A model generated the notes under the pieces. That model made no database searches, had not been told where the DNA came from, and saw only the letters and a list, made by a program, of their open reading frames with translations. Source: a virus (taxonomy: Duplodnaviria; Caudoviricetes). From it: a stretch of 24,551 bases of DNA. Of the stretch, positions 13,900 to 21,234 are shown one piece after another (the stretch's first letter is position 1; each line of letters opens with the position of its first letter). The position numbers and the translations under genes were made by a program. Location: the IMG/VR virus record IMGVR_UViG_3300040971_000027, positions 1 through 24,551 of that record. One strand, given 5' to 3'.

Positions 13900-15426
13900 T
13901 TATCCAAAGTTCATGTAACTTTTGCTTATCTTACCGCCCGTGATTTCTCGCTTGGCGGTGGGTTTCGGTTCCAACGTTGCAAAGTCGCCTTTCGGTTTCG
14001 TCTGCGCAGGTGCGTTCGCAACAAAATCTTTTAAGCGAACAACCGCTTGCGAGGTCATATCAACCATGTCCTTAAAAGATGATTTTGGAAACCTTGTCAT
14101 TTGGTCAAGATATTCCTCTACCCAAGGTTCACCTTTAGGCAAGTGTACGTTTCCAGCCATGACGAAAGGTTGGATCGCTTGCGCTCTTGACTCCTTGCTT
14201 CCTAACGGGTTGACAGGCACAACGCCCATGATTTCACGCTGTAATGTACTAATGATCGCTGAACCGTTCGCCTTGTCCTCTATAAGAACCATGCTTGCTT
14301 GTGGGTATTTCTGTTTCATGTACCGTATAACTTCAAGTGTTTTTCCAAAATCCATACGCTCGTTGATTACATCTAAAACATAAATGTTTGTGCCGTTTTT
14401 ACCCAACACTCCAATTGCTACTTTGTCGCTTGTTTTGGTTTCCTTAAAGGCGGCATCTACTGAAATCATCGTTTGATACATTGGTGGTAAATCGTGCTTG
14501 TCGTAAAACTTGAACCAATCTCGCTTAAACATATTTCCAGATTGCAATACTGGATTCCCTTGATACATTGCAAGCCAAGCATCCATACCGTCAGTTGCGA
14601 TATATGATGCTTTCATCTCGTCTTTCCATTTTCGACCTTTGCCGATTTCTGGGAATAGACCGTCGCCAACTTCACGACCTAATATATCGTTTTCTTCTGC
14701 TTCACAAGTGAGGTTGATGTGCGTTACATTGTTTTCTGTTTTGAGCATTTGCCCTGCGAGATCATCTTCAAACCATCTTGTCATAATTAGTATGACTTTC
14801 GCCCCATTTGCAAGTCGTGTTTTCATGGAAGATTGCCATTCTTGCCATATCTTTTCTCTTGTAACAAGCGAATACGCTTCTTCACGGGTACGAACTGGAT
14901 CATCAATAATAAGTAATTTTGCAGGGTTTCCTGTAACACCAGCCATTACGCCACGGGTTATCATTCGCCCTTTGTGTCCTTCTATTTCAAAATCGTCGTT
15001 TGCCGACTTGCTCTTGGAAACGCTGATGCCGAATATGATTTTGCCGAACCGTTCTATCTTTTCCTTGTTCCGTCTGCCAAACCTCTGTGCAAGGTCATCT
15101 CCGTAAGCAAGTGCGATCACACCTGCGTCTGGATTTTTACCTAAAAACCACGATGGAAGTGTTTCGGTAACTGCGCTCGTTTTTCCGTGCTGCGGAGGCA
15201 AATTCAGTATGAGTATGTCGTAAGCGTTGCCTGTTTCCTTCTCGACGAACTCTTGTACCTTGTTGCAGAGGAACACAAGATGCTTGCCTGGTATCCAATC
15301 TGCATCCTTGTTCGTTGACGAGTTCACGATCTCAACGTACTTTAGATAGTTCGCAGTACAGACTTTCCTTGCGGCAAGGGCGAACGCTTTTCTTTTCTTT
15401 GCCGATGTCGCTTTGTCTGTTGCCAT
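13900..15426 (-). CDS. terL: Terminase large subunit
   Basis: Walker A PPQHGKT, Walker B LLIIDDP, MTRW motif, and nuclease acidic motifs SVDAAF, EDKANG and DMVD. Confidence 0.96.
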   Translation of the reverse strand: MATDKATSAKKRKAFALAARKVCTANYLKYVEIVNSSTNKDADWIPGKHLVFLCNKVQEFVEKETGNAYDILILNLPPQHGKTSAVTETLPSWFLGKNPDAGVIALAYGDDLAQRFGRRNKEKIERFGKIIFGISVSKSKSANDDFEIEGHKGRMITRGVMAGVTGNPAKLLIIDDPVRTREEAYSLVTREKIWQEWQSSMKTRLANGAKVILIMTRWFEDDLAGQMLKTENNVTHINLTCEAEENDILGREVGDGLFPEIGKGRKWKDEMKASYIATDGMDAWLAMYQGNPVLQSGNMFKRDWFKFYDKHDLPPMYQTMISVDAAFKETKTSDKVAIGVLGKNGTNIYVLDVINERMDFGKTLEVIRYMKQKYPQASMVLIEDKANGSAIISTLQREIMGVVPVNPLGSKESRAQAIQPFVMAGNVHLPKGEPWVEEYLDQMTRFPKSSFKDMVDMTSQAVVRLKDFVANAPAQTKPKGDFATLEPKPTAKREITGGKISKSYMNFG

Positions 15427-16275
15427 TTACCTACCTCTAAAATACTTATCCCTCATTGGCTCAAATACCGCATAAGACGAATCGTACACGATACCGCACC
15501 CAAGCGTTTCTCGGTTCTTGTTGTACTTCCCGTAACGGAAAGCGTAACGGTCAATATCAATGCCACAACCTACATTCAAGCCGAATATCAGCATCTTTGA
15601 GTTGCTTTTATACAGGCAGCCACCGAAACTGTGCAGATGCCCGATAACCACGCTCTGCATGGCGTTGGTAGCCTTGTCCACGGCTCCTGTCTTGCCATTT
15701 ACGCCTAACCCATGTTCGTACAGAACATCGTTGATGACAAGTTGCTCGTGTATCTTCCACCCTTTCGGCAGATTCCACAGTTCTCTGAACCCCTTCAAGT
15801 AGCATCGTGGGATTCCAAGTGTGGCGCATTGCCGTTCGGGTATCAAGTCGTGGTTTCCAAGCAGGGTATCTACGTTTGGAAACGCTCTTGTGTAGATTTC
15901 AACGTTCTTTGTCGCAAGTTCAAACTCTGTGACGGCTCCGTCTGCATCGGCTTCCCTCTGCCAACGGCTGATTGCATGGTTGTCTACAAGGTCGCCAATC
16001 TGCACGATGCGTGTGACTCGGTGTTTACGAAAGGTGTCCTCTAAAAAGTGTATGTAGTTTGGATGCACGAACGGGAAATGCAGGTCTGCGATCACGCCGA
16101 CAACCTCTTGTCGCTCGGTTTCTTGGTAGGTCGGCAGCGAACGGATGTGTCCTCGCACTTTCTCACGAACCTTCTGCGTGTCCTCGGTAGGGAAATACTT
16201 CTCTTTGATGACGGCAACGGTTTCTGTCCACGACAAAGTTTCTTTCAACGCTTCTGCTTCCGTTTTCCAGTTCAT
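15427..16275 (-). CDS. Calcineurin-like metallophosphoesterase
   Basis: DLH, GDLVD, GNHD, EHG and GHLH motifs; AAGGAGG RBS. Confidence 0.9.
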   Translation of the reverse strand: MNWKTEAEALKETLSWTETVAVIKEKYFPTEDTQKVREKVRGHIRSLPTYQETERQEVVGVIADLHFPFVHPNYIHFLEDTFRKHRVTRIVQIGDLVDNHAISRWQREADADGAVTEFELATKNVEIYTRAFPNVDTLLGNHDLIPERQCATLGIPRCYLKGFRELWNLPKGWKIHEQLVINDVLYEHGLGVNGKTGAVDKATNAMQSVVIGHLHSFGGCLYKSNSKMLIFGLNVGCGIDIDRYAFRYGKYNKNRETLGCGIVYDSSYAVFEPMRDKYFRGR

Positions 16276-16286
16276 GTTCCCTCCTT

Positions 16287-16357
16287 AAAAAGAAATGACA
16301 ACGATCCCCTATCCTTTCGTTGTCTGTGCCGTAGACCCGCTGGACTACTTACGACAC
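16287..16357 (-). terminator. Double hairpin ending in a terminator-like stem directly before the phosphoesterase RBS
   Basis: GTGTCGTA/TACGGCAC stem (G-U pair only on the minus strand), then GACAACGA/TCGTTGTC + ATTTCTTTTT + AAGGAGG. Confidence 0.55.
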
Positions 16358-16387
16358 GCCCTTATTTCATTTAATTGAAATTGTTTT

Positions 16388-16419
16388 CAAACAAAAGGAG
16401 CAAGAATCAATCTCGCTCC
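16388..16419 (-). terminator. Intrinsic terminator closing the structured non-coding region
   Basis: GGAGCGAGA-TTGAT-TCTTGCTCC followed by TTTTGTTTG. Confidence 0.7.
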
Positions 16420-16790
16420 GTGTGTTAGAACTGCTCTCATAACGCCATACGGCTCCCTGACCCTCCGCTTTAATAAAATGCCACGGTCTTGCAGGGCGGC
16501 TCGTTTTAGAACTTTTGAGCATACAAGTAAAGGTGGCGCCTCGGATGCTGACCCCCGCGCCTTATTCGTGTACCTTTACTCAAAGTTTTAGCACAACATC
16601 ACAGCATTCTTTTAGTTGTGCCTTTGACGATAGATTTTACAGTCCCCACTTATCGGTAGGGTTCACCTGATTTATTATTTAGCGCCCTGCGTCCGAAGAA
16701 CCTCGTTGCGCACCGATAGGTCTTTGTCAAATATTGCAGTACGGGCATGAACCAAACCGCTTTACCGTCAACGTGACCAACAGGGCTGAT
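16420..16790 (-). ncRNA. Candidate large structured ncRNA (possibly ROOL-related)
   Basis: No ORF of 60 aa or more. Nested stems 16526-16534/16572-16580, 16535-16539/16557-16561, 16591-16597/16615-16621, 16623-16628/16726-16731 and 16649-16657/16712-16720. Bounded by a tRNA-like CCA end and a terminator. Confidence 0.5.
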
Positions 16791-16883
16791 TGGTGGAAGC
16801 GATGAGAGTTGAACTCATGTTCCGGAAGGTGTCAACGGCTTATTTCACGCCATTGCACCTCTCACGGCGTACCCGACGCTCCC
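16791..16883 (-). ncRNA. 93-nt tRNA-like RNA resembling an isolated tmRNA tRNA-like domain (Ala acceptor)
   Basis: Acceptor GGGAGCG/CGCTTCC with G3.U70, A73 and encoded CCA; T arm ATGAG-TTCAACT-CTCAT; no canonical 7-nt anticodon loop. Confidence 0.7.
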
Positions 16884-17016
16884 ATGTTTTTATCCATTGC
16901 GTAAAATCGAACCATTTAGTCGATACGATGTAATGGACATTGTAGTAAAGTTTGATATGCCAAGGTATGTCGTCAAATAGATTTAATTCTTGTATCGGCA
17001 CAATTTTATTTGCCAT
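16840..17016 (-). CDS. Small hypothetical protein (58 aa) overlapping the tRNA-like element
   Basis: Own translation MANKIVPIQELNLFDDIPWHIKLYYNVHYIVSTKWFDFTQWIKTWERRVRRERCNGVK; GAAAGGT upstream. Confidence 0.45.
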   Translation of the reverse strand: MANKIVPIQELNLFDDIPWHIKLYYNVHYIVSTKWFDFTQWIKTWERRVRRERCNGVK

Positions 17017-17049
17017 CACTCGCTACCTTTCATCCCCATGTGTGTACTT

Positions 17050-17790
17050 ATTTGCACAATTTACCCATGTTTTTAGGCATATAAGTAGATTGTTGTGCAA
17101 ATGCACTAAACCCTTTAGGGTATAATGTTAATCAAAAAATCAAGTATTGTACCCGATGGGGTTGACTTTCGTGCTATGTTTCGTTTGTAAAGTGTGCATG
17201 GTTGTACGGTTTTACGTTTGTAAAAGTGTACGTTATGTACGTTGTGTCCCTAATGATGTACTCGATTAGGGACATTATTCGTTAATCTGTTTCAGTATGC
17301 GCCTCGCCTTTCTGCGGTTCTCACGTTTCATGTATGACCAGATGTATTTCTTGCAACAGCAGTATTTCCGCAAAAAGCGATCTTCGTAAGTCAGTTTGCG
17401 GTAGATTCCTCTTTGCATATCTGCACCTCGCAATCGTGTTTTCCTCGATAATGCGGTGTAACATTCTAAATTTGTAATGTAACGTGCTGATGTTAGATTG
17501 CTTAACCTACATTTTGCAGTTTTCTAAAATTGTAGGTTGCTTTAATGTTGGTGTAAAGTTTGCTAATTTTGAGGATAATCTCGTAAAATCCAAAGTGCTG
17601 TGGTGGAATTTACGGATACAACCTTAAACTTTGGCTCGGTTTTGCTTGTTGTTTTGGCTTGTTTGCAACTGACTACGATTTGTAGTCGTTTTGTTGAGTT
17701 GATTGTAATTTCCATTTTGGAAATAACCACGCAATAATGACTTTTATGTGCGTTTTAATCACAGAATTATGATTTAATCGCACTTGTTGC
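17050..17790. repeat. Cluster of short, mutually different inverted repeats
   Basis: For example ATTTGCACAA/TTGTGCAAAT (17050/17093), TGTCCCTAAT/ATTAGGGACA (17245-17274), AACCTACAATTTT/AAAATTGTAGGTT (~17504-17538) and GACTAC/GTAGTC (~17671-17687). Confidence 0.7.
17275..17418 (-). CDS. Small basic protein (47 aa), not in ORF track
   Basis: Own translation MQRGIYRKLTYEDRFLRKYCCCKKYIWSYMKRENRRKARRILKQINE; GAGGTG RBS; hairpin directly after the stop. Confidence 0.6.
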   Translation of the reverse strand: MQRGIYRKLTYEDRFLRKYCCCKKYIWSYMKRENRRKARRILKQINE

Positions 17791-17875
17791 TGACGACAGC
17801 AAAATCGTAAGGAAGTGGGAGTCGCCCTTCGTTTCAGACGGCTCCCGATAAGAGAAAGGAGGGTTTCTCGTGAGG

Positions 17876-18439
17876 TTAGTGTATGACAATCGGCAAGTCT
17901 GGTACGGTCTTGGCTTGCTCTAAGAAGTTGTTCTTCACCCATTCGGGCAACGCTTCTGATAGCTCGTCTTGGAATATGATGTACGTTTCCAGCGAGATGC
18001 GCTTGTCTTTCAACCCGTACAATGGGTTGTAGGCGTACCACGATATACCGCCGATTGTGACTTCCTTTAAGACTTTGTGCTTCTTTGCCGCCTGTATTGT
18101 ATAGTAGGTGCTTCGGTTCTTGCACTTGAATATCTCTGAAATTCGGCTGATCGTAAGCGGTATGAACCGTCCGTGCTTTCGCTCTCCTAAAAGTTGCGAC
18201 GATCCTACAATGTAGGTCTGTAACCTGGACAACTTCCCTTGGTCTACCCACGACAACCCCGACGGCAGCGCAGAATCCGTAAACTTCTTGACGTAGTTCT
18301 CTCTTGGCTTGTATAAGAATCCTTTGTGGTCTGAGAACATGGCATCCACAAAGCGTTCTTTTCCGTAGGTGATCTCCCCTGTTTCAAGGTTCGTATGCTC
18401 TTGCCGTATTAGTTGCTTCCCTTTGTTCTTGACTCGCAT
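17876..18439 (-). CDS. RepL-like winged-helix DNA-binding protein
   Basis: NLETGEI N-terminal motif, HTH-like ISRISEIFKCKNRSTYYTI and YAYNP wing motif typical of Firmicute RepL-like proteins; AAAGGGG RBS. Confidence 0.65.
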   Translation of the reverse strand: MRVKNKGKQLIRQEHTNLETGEITYGKERFVDAMFSDHKGFLYKPRENYVKKFTDSALPSGLSWVDQGKLSRLQTYIVGSSQLLGERKHGRFIPLTISRISEIFKCKNRSTYYTIQAAKKHKVLKEVTIGGISWYAYNPLYGLKDKRISLETYIIFQDELSEALPEWVKNNFLEQAKTVPDLPIVIH

Positions 18440-19340: not shown

Positions 19341-19772
19341 TCACTCTAACAACTGATAACCCAACTTTGACAGTAAAGCATCGATTTCCGTGTCATCTGC
19401 GTCAATTTCGACGGTATCGTTCGTGTTTTCGGTCGGTTTATCCTGGTAGCCGAAAGCGTTCTTCATATAGAAGATTGCCATCGCCGGAGCGCCTTTATAG
19501 TTGATCGCTCTATCCTCTAATGCGTGAGAAGCCTTTTTGTATGACTCGGGATAGTATGCTTCTTGCTCATAAAACGTATCTTCCGTAATATCAGCGAAAA
19601 CGCAAAACCCCTTCTTGTTTGCCAAATCCTTCCGATCCTCGCAAACCTTAAGATATTCTAGGATAGCACTTTGAAACGATTCTTCTGTGGGGAATCTCCG
19701 TGGTCTACCAATCTTGGCGGGTAGCAACTCGGGATGATCAGCGTAGTATTCCTTTGTTCGCTTCCGTGCCAC
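19341..19772 (-). CDS. terS: Terminase small subunit (P22 gp3-like)
   Basis: GRPRRF.T.E.FQ.AI.EY, GFCVFA.I...TFY and AIFYMKNAFGYQDK; AAGGA RBS, GTG start. Confidence 0.85.
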   Translation of the reverse strand: MARKRTKEYYADHPELLPAKIGRPRRFPTEESFQSAILEYLKVCEDRKDLANKKGFCVFADITEDTFYEQEAYYPESYKKASHALEDRAINYKGAPAMAIFYMKNAFGYQDKPTENTNDTVEIDADDTEIDALLSKLGYQLLE

Positions 19773-20370: not shown

Positions 20371-21234
20371 ATGAACGTTTACGAAATCGTAACTGAACGA
20401 ATGATTGAAGAACTCAAAAAGGGAAACATCCCTTGGTTGAAACCTTGGACAGGGACAAAAGACGGCGCATACAGCCGCAGCACGGGGCGCGCATACTCTT
20501 TTATCAATCAAATGATGCTAAAGCACACAGGCGAATATCTAACCTATAAGCAAGCAACAGAAGCGGGTGGTAGCGTTCGCAAAGGCGAAAAATCAGAACT
20601 GGTCGTATTTTTCAAACCCTATCCAGTCAAAGATACGGACGCAAGCGGCAAGCAAGTAGATAAAATTATTCCCTTGTTGCGCTACTACAATGTATTTCAC
20701 ATCACGCAATGCGACGGTATAGAAGCCAAATATCAGCCAGAAGAAGTCAAAATATTTGATCCGATTGCAGAAGCCGAAAGTTTGAAAGACGAATATATCA
20801 GCCGAGAAGGGATTTCATATTTAGAGGAAGTTGGCAACAGGGCATATTATTCTCCAAAATTGGACGCTGTAAAACTACCAGATCGCTCACAATTTGACCA
20901 GGTAAGCGAGTTTTATTCAACAGTATTCCATGAGTTGGTCCACAGCACTGGACACGAAAAACGGCTCAATCGTTTAACAAAAGATGCTCATTTTGGAAAT
21001 CAGGAATACAGCAAAGAAGAACTTGTTGCCGAGATTGGCGCAGCCGCCATATTGAACAAACTAAATATTGAATCAGACAGCAGCATAAAGAATAATATCG
21101 CATACGTTGGTAGTTGGCTCAAAGCATTGCAAAACGATTCAAAGATGATAATCTATGCAGCAGGAAAAGCAGAAAAAGCCGTCAATTTGATTATGGGAAT
21201 CTCCGTTGAAAAGACAGAATCGGAGGTAGCATAA
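20371..21234 (+). CDS. ardC: ArdC-like anti-restriction protein (ssDNA-binding domain + zincin-like MPTase domain)
   Basis: YEIVTERMIEEL..G.IPW.KPW, TGRAYS.IN, TYKQA...GG.VRKGEK, Y.VF...Q.DG, AYYSP..D, HELVHSTGH and YSKEELVAE. Confidence 0.9.
   Translation: MNVYEIVTERMIEELKKGNIPWLKPWTGTKDGAYSRSTGRAYSFINQMMLKHTGEYLTYKQATEAGGSVRKGEKSELVVFFKPYPVKDTDASGKQVDKIIPLLRYYNVFHITQCDGIEAKYQPEEVKIFDPIAEAESLKDEYISREGISYLEEVGNRAYYSPKLDAVKLPDRSQFDQVSEFYSTVFHELVHSTGHEKRLNRLTKDAHFGNQEYSKEELVAEIGAAAILNKLNIESDSSIKNNIAYVGSWLKALQNDSKMIIYAAGKAEKAVNLIMGISVEKTESEVA

Follow-up and report, generated by a model that had tools for sequence, protein, structure and literature searches.

The 24,551-bp stretch of DNA analyzed here (the window), which is the whole of an IMG/VR virus record with an estimated completeness of 34%, encodes on its minus strand at 16791–16883 a 93-nucleotide (nt) RNA, and the sequence supports the view that this RNA is the tRNA-like domain (TLD) of a transfer-messenger RNA (tmRNA) without the mRNA-like domain. 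Bacteria rescue ribosomes mainly through trans-translation, which is also a drug target, and a phage RNA that reproduces just the tRNA-like head of tmRNA would be a natural candidate for an inhibitor or hijacker of that path. We favor, with moderate confidence, the reading that the RNA is a discrete, conserved phage gene, a TLD without a message that is predicted to be charged with alanine, likely binds host SmpB and competes with host tmRNA; we infer the functional part (alanylation and SmpB capture) from tmRNA biology and from reports on phage DS6A. Since the kind is already in print for DS6A (PMC4131195; PMC11915505), the novelty implied by the initial annotation of this DNA was overstated; what is new here is a tmRNA end of the Clostridia type, a P2 helix of unusual length and a population picture made up of an invariant core, a compensated, swappable hairpin and exact boundaries. 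The DS6A-type kind is thereby extended to a Bacillota-type phage, with an RNA that ARAGORN and Rfam at its curated cut-off both overlook.

The sequence given for the minus strand of 16791–16883 in the initial annotation is exact, and the acceptor and T arm were read correctly there. With RNA position p defined as 16884 minus the window coordinate, the 5′ acceptor strand GGGAGCG (RNA 1–7, 16877–16883) pairs 7/7 with RNA 83–89 (16795–16801), G3.U70 included, and the 3′ acceptor strand CGCUUCC leads into the discriminator A73 and an encoded CCA (A73-CCA is RNA 90–93; strand, discriminator and CCA together span 16791–16801). The T arm (RNA 66–82, 16802–16818) is perfect, with a 5-bp stem AUGAG/CUCAU and the loop UUCAACU. 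The D region had been described as having no clear stem; indeed, RNA 8–16 (16868–16876), an unpaired stretch with GGG that aligns with the single-stranded D-loop analog of the tmRNA model, forms at most a 2-bp CG/CG pairing in the minimum free energy (MFE) fold.

The anticodon arm is replaced by a single irregular helix (RNA 17–62, 16822–16867), which appears in both the MFE and centroid folds and aligns with the P2 helix of the Rfam tmRNA family RF00023. The 9-nt loop of the original description, GUGAAAUAA at 16840–16848, stands; its helix length of about 13 bp does not, as the MFE fold gives 17 pairs with three bulges (U20, G23 and A52). The upper part, an apical hairpin (RNA 29–51, 16833–16855) with the stem CAAUGGC/GCCGUUG below that loop, is the variable part of the molecule. 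The MFE of the RNA is −37.6 kcal/mol, compared to −26.1 ± 3.0 for 200 shuffles, none of which folded as well (z −3.8). Together with the global match to RF00023 described below, this fold indicates more RNA structure than expected by chance.

ARAGORN, in tRNA and tmRNA modes, made no call anywhere in the window, and Rfam at curated cut-offs had no match in it. In E-value mode, RF00023 aligned to the RNA end to end (model positions 1–374) with 38 bits and E 2.7e-13 (E 9.8e-16 in a second search), the gathering cut-off of the family being 47 bits, and on exactly 16791–16883 it outscored all other tRNA-clan families, including the tRNA model RF00005. In this alignment, 11 nt of the RNA stand in place of 288 inner model positions, consistent with the earlier claim that no tag open reading frame (ORF) is present. 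A tool control showed that RF00023 also matches archaeal genomes at E ≤ 0.001, and archaea, to our knowledge, have no tmRNA; thus, a low RF00023 E-value alone is no proof of tmRNA ancestry, and the case is carried by the global alignment across the P2 helix, the signature of the 3′ end and the relatives. The TLD layout that had been recognized at the outset, and with it the TLD-only reading, accordingly follows from the Rfam global alignment, the DS6A parallel and the tmRNA-type 3′ end.

The features that set tmRNA proper and canonical tRNA apart from this RNA are plain in its sequence. There is no mRNA-like domain with a resume codon and tag frame, and the P2 helix, capped by the 9-nt loop, leaves no space for the PK1–PK4 pseudoknot ring; there is also neither a D arm nor a 7-nt anticodon loop with an anticodon. 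A canonical tRNA score, for which a check had been advised, did not emerge, since ARAGORN made no tRNA call. A search of the window for a complement of the apical loop returned the self match only (0.43 matches expected by chance). We considered by eye a very short tag within the helix (for instance Ala-Met-Ala-stop) and dropped it, because the same stretch is replaced in contigs of relatives.

We then compared the 3′ end of the RNA with those of bacteria and archaea by scanning one genome per prokaryote species with a pattern composed of the T loop, 4 N, the 3′ acceptor strand and ACCA. The pattern occurred at 80 bacterial loci; at 62 of these a full tmRNA with a tag peptide called by ARAGORN ends exactly at the match, a further six, probably tmRNAs overlooked by ARAGORN, are preceded by a matching 5′ strand at a distance of about 350 nt, and three are tRNAs (Ala, Lys and Ser). 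By record title, the loci belong mostly to Clostridia (Oscillospiraceae, Christensenellaceae, Lachnospiraceae and Peptoniphilus), with a few from Francisella/Thiotrichales. Four of the tmRNAs start with GGGAGCG, as the phage RNA does, and the remaining 5′ ends, among the best 25 of 63, start with GGGGGCG. In front of the T arm, the phage RNA and these tmRNAs have the junction ..CGGA.C in common. The T stem AUGAG/CUCAU occurs in none of the 62 tmRNAs, and thus the phage RNA was not freshly copied from a tmRNA of this set. A Gemmatimonadales metagenome-assembled genome contains a 127-nt candidate that has the acceptor strands and T loop of the phage RNA, a GC-rich interior and no tag ORF call; this may be a reduced tmRNA-like RNA of the bacterium or of a prophage.

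Core, hairpin and boundaries in close relatives

The RNA lies in an ORF-poor stretch of about 1.6 kb (16276–17875), part of which is represented in 15 public sequencing runs from eight studies; contigs of six runs were compared. Two samples of one study (X2 and X4) yielded many short contigs over the RNA, with no listed difference in positions 1–27 or 60–93. The initial annotation had asked whether homologs keep the T arm and 3′ end alone, and these close relatives keep both the 5′ and the 3′ parts. There was no contig on the RNA in runs X11 and X12, and no RNA-type run among the 15 (X13, labeled "RNA?", does not cover the RNA).

In contrast to this core, the region of the apical hairpin (positions 28–52) takes several forms among the contigs. 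The window has the stem CAAUGGC/GCCGUUG and a 9-nt loop (form 1), and a second form, found in X2 and X4, has one substitution and one inserted base in the loop. In a third form, found in one 95-nt X2 contig with 16 differences from the window (14 of them listed) plus two indels, the stem is UAUUGC/GCAAUA, with an extra U-A pair possible, and the loop is 11 nt; a fourth form, a 27-letter loose end found in X2 and X4, has the stem of form 3 and two loop differences. The loop is thus 9, 10 or 11 nt long among near-identical relatives. The exchange of one stem for another complementary stem is, at the level of sequence, the mark of a structural RNA and not of a protein C-terminus, and this population evidence marks the hairpin as the part that is free to vary.

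The ends of the RNA coincide with breaks in homology. Downstream, depth in X2 and X4 is zero over 16751–16786 and begins at 16787–16792, and three different continuations, two of which begin with hairpins in the RNA sense, are joined 0–3 nt past the final A of CCA. Upstream, the junction with an alternative context falls exactly on G1 (16883), differences in the form of small indels and substitutions set in 2–3 nt before G1, and 164–298 nt of upstream DNA are skipped in contigs with the joints 16885>17161, 16883>17182 and 16886>17051. A contig of run X10 has the first 20 nt of the RNA, then 86 unlike letters and then the terminator hairpin (about 16394–16426); it is without 16427–16863 (437 nt), including the roughly 365 nt that separate the RNA from that hairpin in the window. 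These results argue for a discrete gene under selection on its core. Because the core is kept, the hairpin is swapped with its pairing preserved, and homology is lost at G1 and near the CCA, the RNA is not well described as an attachment-site (att) remnant, an odd tRNA or part of an ORF.

More distant searches found no further copy. There was no blastn match to 16400–17300 among 50,697 phage records, and no exact match to the 28-nt 3′ end in IMG/VR. Six IMG/VR loci with relatives of the large terminase (TerL) have the RNA in none, do not share the neighbor genes, and have DNA upstream of TerL that could not be aligned. Relatives of TerL in prophages gave 11 matches (30–48% identity) in 401 sampled genomes, and no RNA family was found near the four of these that were inspected. 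A metagenome scan that allowed C or U at position 70 (18 of 64 parts; at least 120 loci, mostly ordinary tRNAs) gave eight spans without an ARAGORN call, none resembling the RNA.

These searches also turned up tRNA genes. One of the IMG/VR TerL relatives (L002, TerL 73–75% identical) has at 25–98 a tRNA-Trp of normal type with a CCA anticodon, which precedes the large terminase by about 1.45 kb and lies at about the place that the mini-tmRNA occupies in the window; another (L003) has neither the mini-tmRNA nor the tRNA-Trp. Upstream of the large terminase there seems to be a site at which tRNA-type genes are carried as cargo. Three metagenome contigs (L024, L037 and L074) carry 84-nt tRNAs with a CUA anticodon that ARAGORN labels tRNA-Pyl and that are possible amber suppressors, and another (L112) has a tRNA-like gene with a palindromic insert of about 25 nt in the anticodon region and no ARAGORN call.

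We considered that the RNA might be a functionless relic, either an att fragment of a host tmRNA gene or a decaying tRNA or tmRNA pseudogene. The 3′ ends of tmRNA genes are common integration sites according to the accessible part of PMC11915505, the 24-nt 3′ signature of the RNA is common to many bacterial tmRNAs, and the RNA is missing from L003 and matched by a tRNA-Trp at the analogous place in L002. However, an att core has no need of the complementary 5′ acceptor strand that is present here (7/7), the T stem is unlike that of all 62 tmRNAs, the window (a fragment 34% complete) yielded no integrase or resolvase family, and the conserved core, compensated hairpin swap and exact module boundaries argue for selection. 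We therefore regard a relic as very unlikely.

The initial annotation had also offered a weaker cloverleaf with a 9-nt anticodon loop, and a role as a processing signal for the adjacent RNA. A fold resembling a cloverleaf can indeed be drawn, and tRNA-like units serve elsewhere as handles for RNase P and RNase Z. The cloverleaf is nevertheless unlikely because both the sequence and the length of its loop vary among near-identical relatives; moreover, ARAGORN made no call, the tmRNA model outscores the tRNA model, and the loop has no complement elsewhere in the window. As for a handle, relatives do not share the DNA downstream, whose folding does not stand out from shuffles (z −1.17), and Rfam at E ≤ 10 gave nothing strong there, the matches being one of E 2.2 and one of E 8.6, which lie on the terminator hairpin and shortly before the next gene. 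Neither an odd decoding tRNA nor a handle for a neighboring RNA is at all probable on this evidence.

A proposed competitor for SmpB

G3.U70 is recognized by alanyl-tRNA synthetase (AlaRS), and SmpB, taking the place of an anticodon arm, binds the TLD on its D-loop/P2 side. On the reading that we favor, the RNA would be transcribed together with the late (packaging) genes on the same strand, which we assume, and its ends would be matured as for tRNA and tmRNA. It would then be charged with alanine by AlaRS via G3.U70 and A73, and would capture SmpB, and perhaps also EF-Tu and the A site of stalled ribosomes, without offering a resume codon. Lacking that codon, the RNA cannot support tagging, so that it would be a competitor of host tmRNA for SmpB. 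Trans-translation and ssrA tagging in the host would then be dampened while the late phage proteins are made. If SmpB titration of this kind does occur, such RNAs could serve as compact tools to switch off tagging in Gram-positive hosts.

The closest precedent comes from DS6A. According to the accessible part of PMC4131195 (Hudson, Lau and Williams 2014), a DS6A-like molecule, chargeable or not, strongly inhibits tmRNA, perhaps via SmpB titration, and the part of the 2025 tmRNA database paper available to us (PMC11915505) states that expression of the DS6A form in E. coli inhibited the endogenous tmRNA.

Several points weigh against competition for SmpB or against the conservation on which the reading draws. 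The inhibition reported for DS6A, as given in those parts of the two papers, is that of another sequence, in E. coli, and the host of the phage in the window is known only as "Bacillota-like"; no SmpB gene was found in the 34%-complete fragment. The RF00023 score (38 bits) is below the family cut-off (47 bits), the Rfam alignment of the lower helix has four non-standard pairs, and one base differs in the highly conserved CGAC motif of the model (after the D-loop GG, at the 5′ base of P2); thus, recognition by SmpB is not assured. The evidence from close variants comes from short contigs in the two samples of one study and was read from tables of differences, not from an alignment. Among these, two changes in the lower helix of the form-3 contig, C56>A and C59>G, look unpaired. 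Their partners, G25 and G21, lie at most 31 nt from the contig end, where no differences are listed, and 2 of the 16 differences are unlisted, so that compensating changes may have escaped the listing. A single X4 contig has A54>U, which breaks U27-A54.

If the RNA were instead productive, we would expect the alanyl-RNA with SmpB to enter stalled ribosomes and accept the nascent chain, after which the peptidyl-RNA would drop off or be hydrolyzed; ribosomes would be freed and phage proteins would not be marked for proteolysis. The anatomy fits such tag-less rescue equally well, and the position on the late-gene strand fits a role under heavy translation. We know of no release mechanism for a peptidyl-TLD. 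The accessible text of PMC11915505 argues that organellar tmRNAs without a coding sequence (CDS) still help with incomplete mRNAs; set against this are the DS6A reports, in which, so far as those sources are accessible, the molecule inhibits tmRNA even when it cannot be charged (PMC4131195; PMC11915505). We consider productive rescue unlikely, if worth keeping in view.

A different target is also conceivable, with the RNA acting as a decoy or sponge for other proteins that bind tmRNA or the top half of tRNA, such as RNase R, accessory nucleases of type III CRISPR systems, SmpB-like defense proteins or toxins that act on the acceptor end. Two reports offer parallels within the parts available to us: a phage anti-CRISPR (Acr) yields tRNA fragments and tmRNA fragments of roughly 90 nt that travel with Cas10-Csm and bind RNase R (PMC11662646), and CoCoNuT defense systems carry SmpB-like domains predicted to bind tmRNA (PMC11090510). 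The exchange of the apical hairpin over a fixed core among close relatives is likewise what an arms race might produce, but neutral, structure-preserving drift or recombination would explain it equally well. The parallels are by analogy, and no defense or Acr gene was identified beside the RNA with Pfam or PHROG. A decoy role of this kind thus appears improbable.

The favored core and the variable hairpin might also be combined in a two-part device, in which an invariant, Ala-accepting and SmpB-binding core would deliver or anchor an apical hairpin cassette that related phages of one community exchange to retarget or escape a host factor (a defense nuclease or an RNA partner). We put forward this idea as a speculation and give it little weight; if it held, mini-tmRNAs would be a diversifying counter-defense module of phages and not a simple SmpB sponge.

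Flanking DNA and gene neighborhood

A 59-codon ORF from a mechanical ORF list (16840–17019, minus strand) overlaps RNA 1–44, with its stop inside the loop of the RNA. It has no Pfam or PHROG match, it is mostly skipped in the contigs of relatives, and its stop codon is changed in one haplotype; it is probably not a gene. The 5′ part of this ORF lies in a 183-nt segment flanked by a direct repeat (16881–16897 and 17064–17080) whose copies are 88% alike and have AAAAACATGGG in common on the RNA strand. The segment looks like an insertion or deletion by recombination at the 5′ end of the RNA, and we take the ORF as a by-product of insertion that puts no constraint on the RNA.

The first terminator-like hairpin with a T run downstream of the RNA is at 16397–16419 (minus strand). 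The intervening DNA (16427–16790, minus strand, about 365 nt) has no convincing ORF, and part of it is covered by one low-depth X2 contig only; most contigs of relatives diverge at 16426. We tried 16385–16790 as a second structured RNA and rejected it, given its fold score and lack of a strong Rfam match noted above and the absence of the stretch from relatives. On the other side of the RNA is a small basic ORF (17275–17433, minus strand; 47–52 codons) with a good GAGG ribosome site before an inner ATG and no family match. Downstream of it lies a perfect 10-bp hairpin (17247–17274) that has no T run and is deleted by the joints 17241/17275 in several contigs of relatives.

The RNA is on the same strand as the packaging genes. 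Upstream are the small terminase gene (19341–19772, on the strand of the RNA), an HNH gene and a gene of unknown product (17876–18439), and downstream are a metallophosphoesterase gene (15427–16275) and TerL (13900–15426); the ORF-poor stretch that contains the RNA runs from the metallophosphoesterase gene to the gene of unknown product. A simple promoter scan found no site immediately upstream of the RNA. The closest cultured homologs of the large terminase, at about 42% identity, are those of Bacillus and Staphylococcus phages. By Pfam and PHROG, the window otherwise has genes of tailed-phage type, encoding a holin, an M15 peptidase, an endolysin-like PG-binding protein, tail-fiber repeats, an SU10-type adaptor, a major head protein and a P22-like portal, together with YopX and an ArdC-like protein. 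The last of these, with ArdC-N and zincin (MPTase-PolyVal) domains, is a predicted anti-restriction factor encoded at 20371–21234 on the plus strand, opposite to the RNA, and adjoins a Cro/C1-type helix-turn-helix gene.

Comparison with full and tag-less tmRNAs

Compared to bacterial tmRNA (RF00023), and especially that of Clostridia, the phage RNA has a T loop, 3′ acceptor strand, A73 and CCA identical to those of 62 tmRNAs called by ARAGORN and shares the GGA..C junction, but it has no pseudoknots, resume codon or tag ORF, and its T stem differs. With tRNA-Ala it shares G3.U70, A73, the CCA end and a T arm; unlike tRNA-Ala, it has no D arm, 7-nt anticodon loop, anticodon or ARAGORN call, and only 1 of the 80 loci that share its 3′ end is a tRNA-Ala.

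We also scanned IMG/VR for RNAs of this class (30 of 64 parts; at least 120 loci) with the pattern GGGA...UUCCACCA plus the T loop. Thirty spans had a 7/7 acceptor and at least 4 of 5 T-stem pairs; 13 contain an ordinary tRNA and 17 do not. We gave Rfam 16 of these 17, leaving out a duplicate of L008. RF00023 was the best family in seven, with 55.2, 52.8 and 52.5 bits (above the cut-off) and 36.2, 27.6, 27.3 and 24.8 bits; the tRNA model was best in three, and six had nothing at E 0.01. The mini-tmRNA-like RNAs among them (L170, L146/L165, L160 and L220/L138) resemble the RNA of the window in size (81–91 nt), Ala-type acceptor, T arm, lack of a tRNA call and RF00023 as best family, the likeness of the acceptor being partly a result of selection because the search pattern fixed acceptor bases. 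In contrast, their interiors could not be aligned with it by MAFFT, and none is a close relative. Several of them adjoin tRNA genes. Two near-identical 81-nt RNAs (L138:301–381 and L220:318–398), both beside tRNA genes, differ by compensated pairs, with G-C versus A-U at acceptor pair 5-68 and, in a small D-side hairpin, U-A in one and G-C in the other. The window and L170, a high-GC sequence whose RNA scored 55.2 bits, have in common an 11-nt string, GCAATGGCGTG, in helix and loop (16846–16856 and L170:325–335); it is probably there by chance, as the phages are unrelated by tblastx and blastn.

In the open-access literature that we searched, no wider phage family of such RNAs is described, and DS6A is the only phage example named, being listed in the accessible part of PMC4131195 as "Mycobacterium phage DS6A (TLD only)". 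Outside phages, CDS-less tmRNAs that co-occur with SmpB are described for organelles (mitochondria, and two plastid genes of about 65 bp) in the part of PMC11915505 available to us. By that description, they resemble the phage RNA as tmRNAs reduced to the tRNA-like domain with no tag frame; unlike it, they are organellar, vertically inherited and served by imported SmpB, whereas the RNA here is phage-borne.

The DS6A RNA (JN698994.1, 28478–28560; tmID 11587 of the tmRNA Website) lies in an unannotated gap between gp33 and gp34. Like the RNA described here, it is phage-encoded and unannotated, has a 7-bp acceptor with G3.U70, a T arm, no D stem, one helix for the anticodon arm and no tag ORF, and is of similar size (83 nt, compared to 93 nt). 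It also matches RF00023 globally and below the cut-off (43.2 bits, compared to 38.0 bits). The two differ in that DS6A is an actinobacteriophage and the window is from a Bacillota-type phage, in the lack of any sequence similarity inside the stems, and at the 3′ end, where the DS6A gene ends in CUA and the phage RNA here in CCA; furthermore, with 17 bp the helix of the RNA described here is much the longer of the two, and its fold stands out more strongly from shuffles (z −3.8, compared to −0.86 for DS6A). The structural and genetic features of the DS6A type are found here as well, namely a complete TLD, a P2-like helix with a short cap, no tag ORF and a discrete phage gene.

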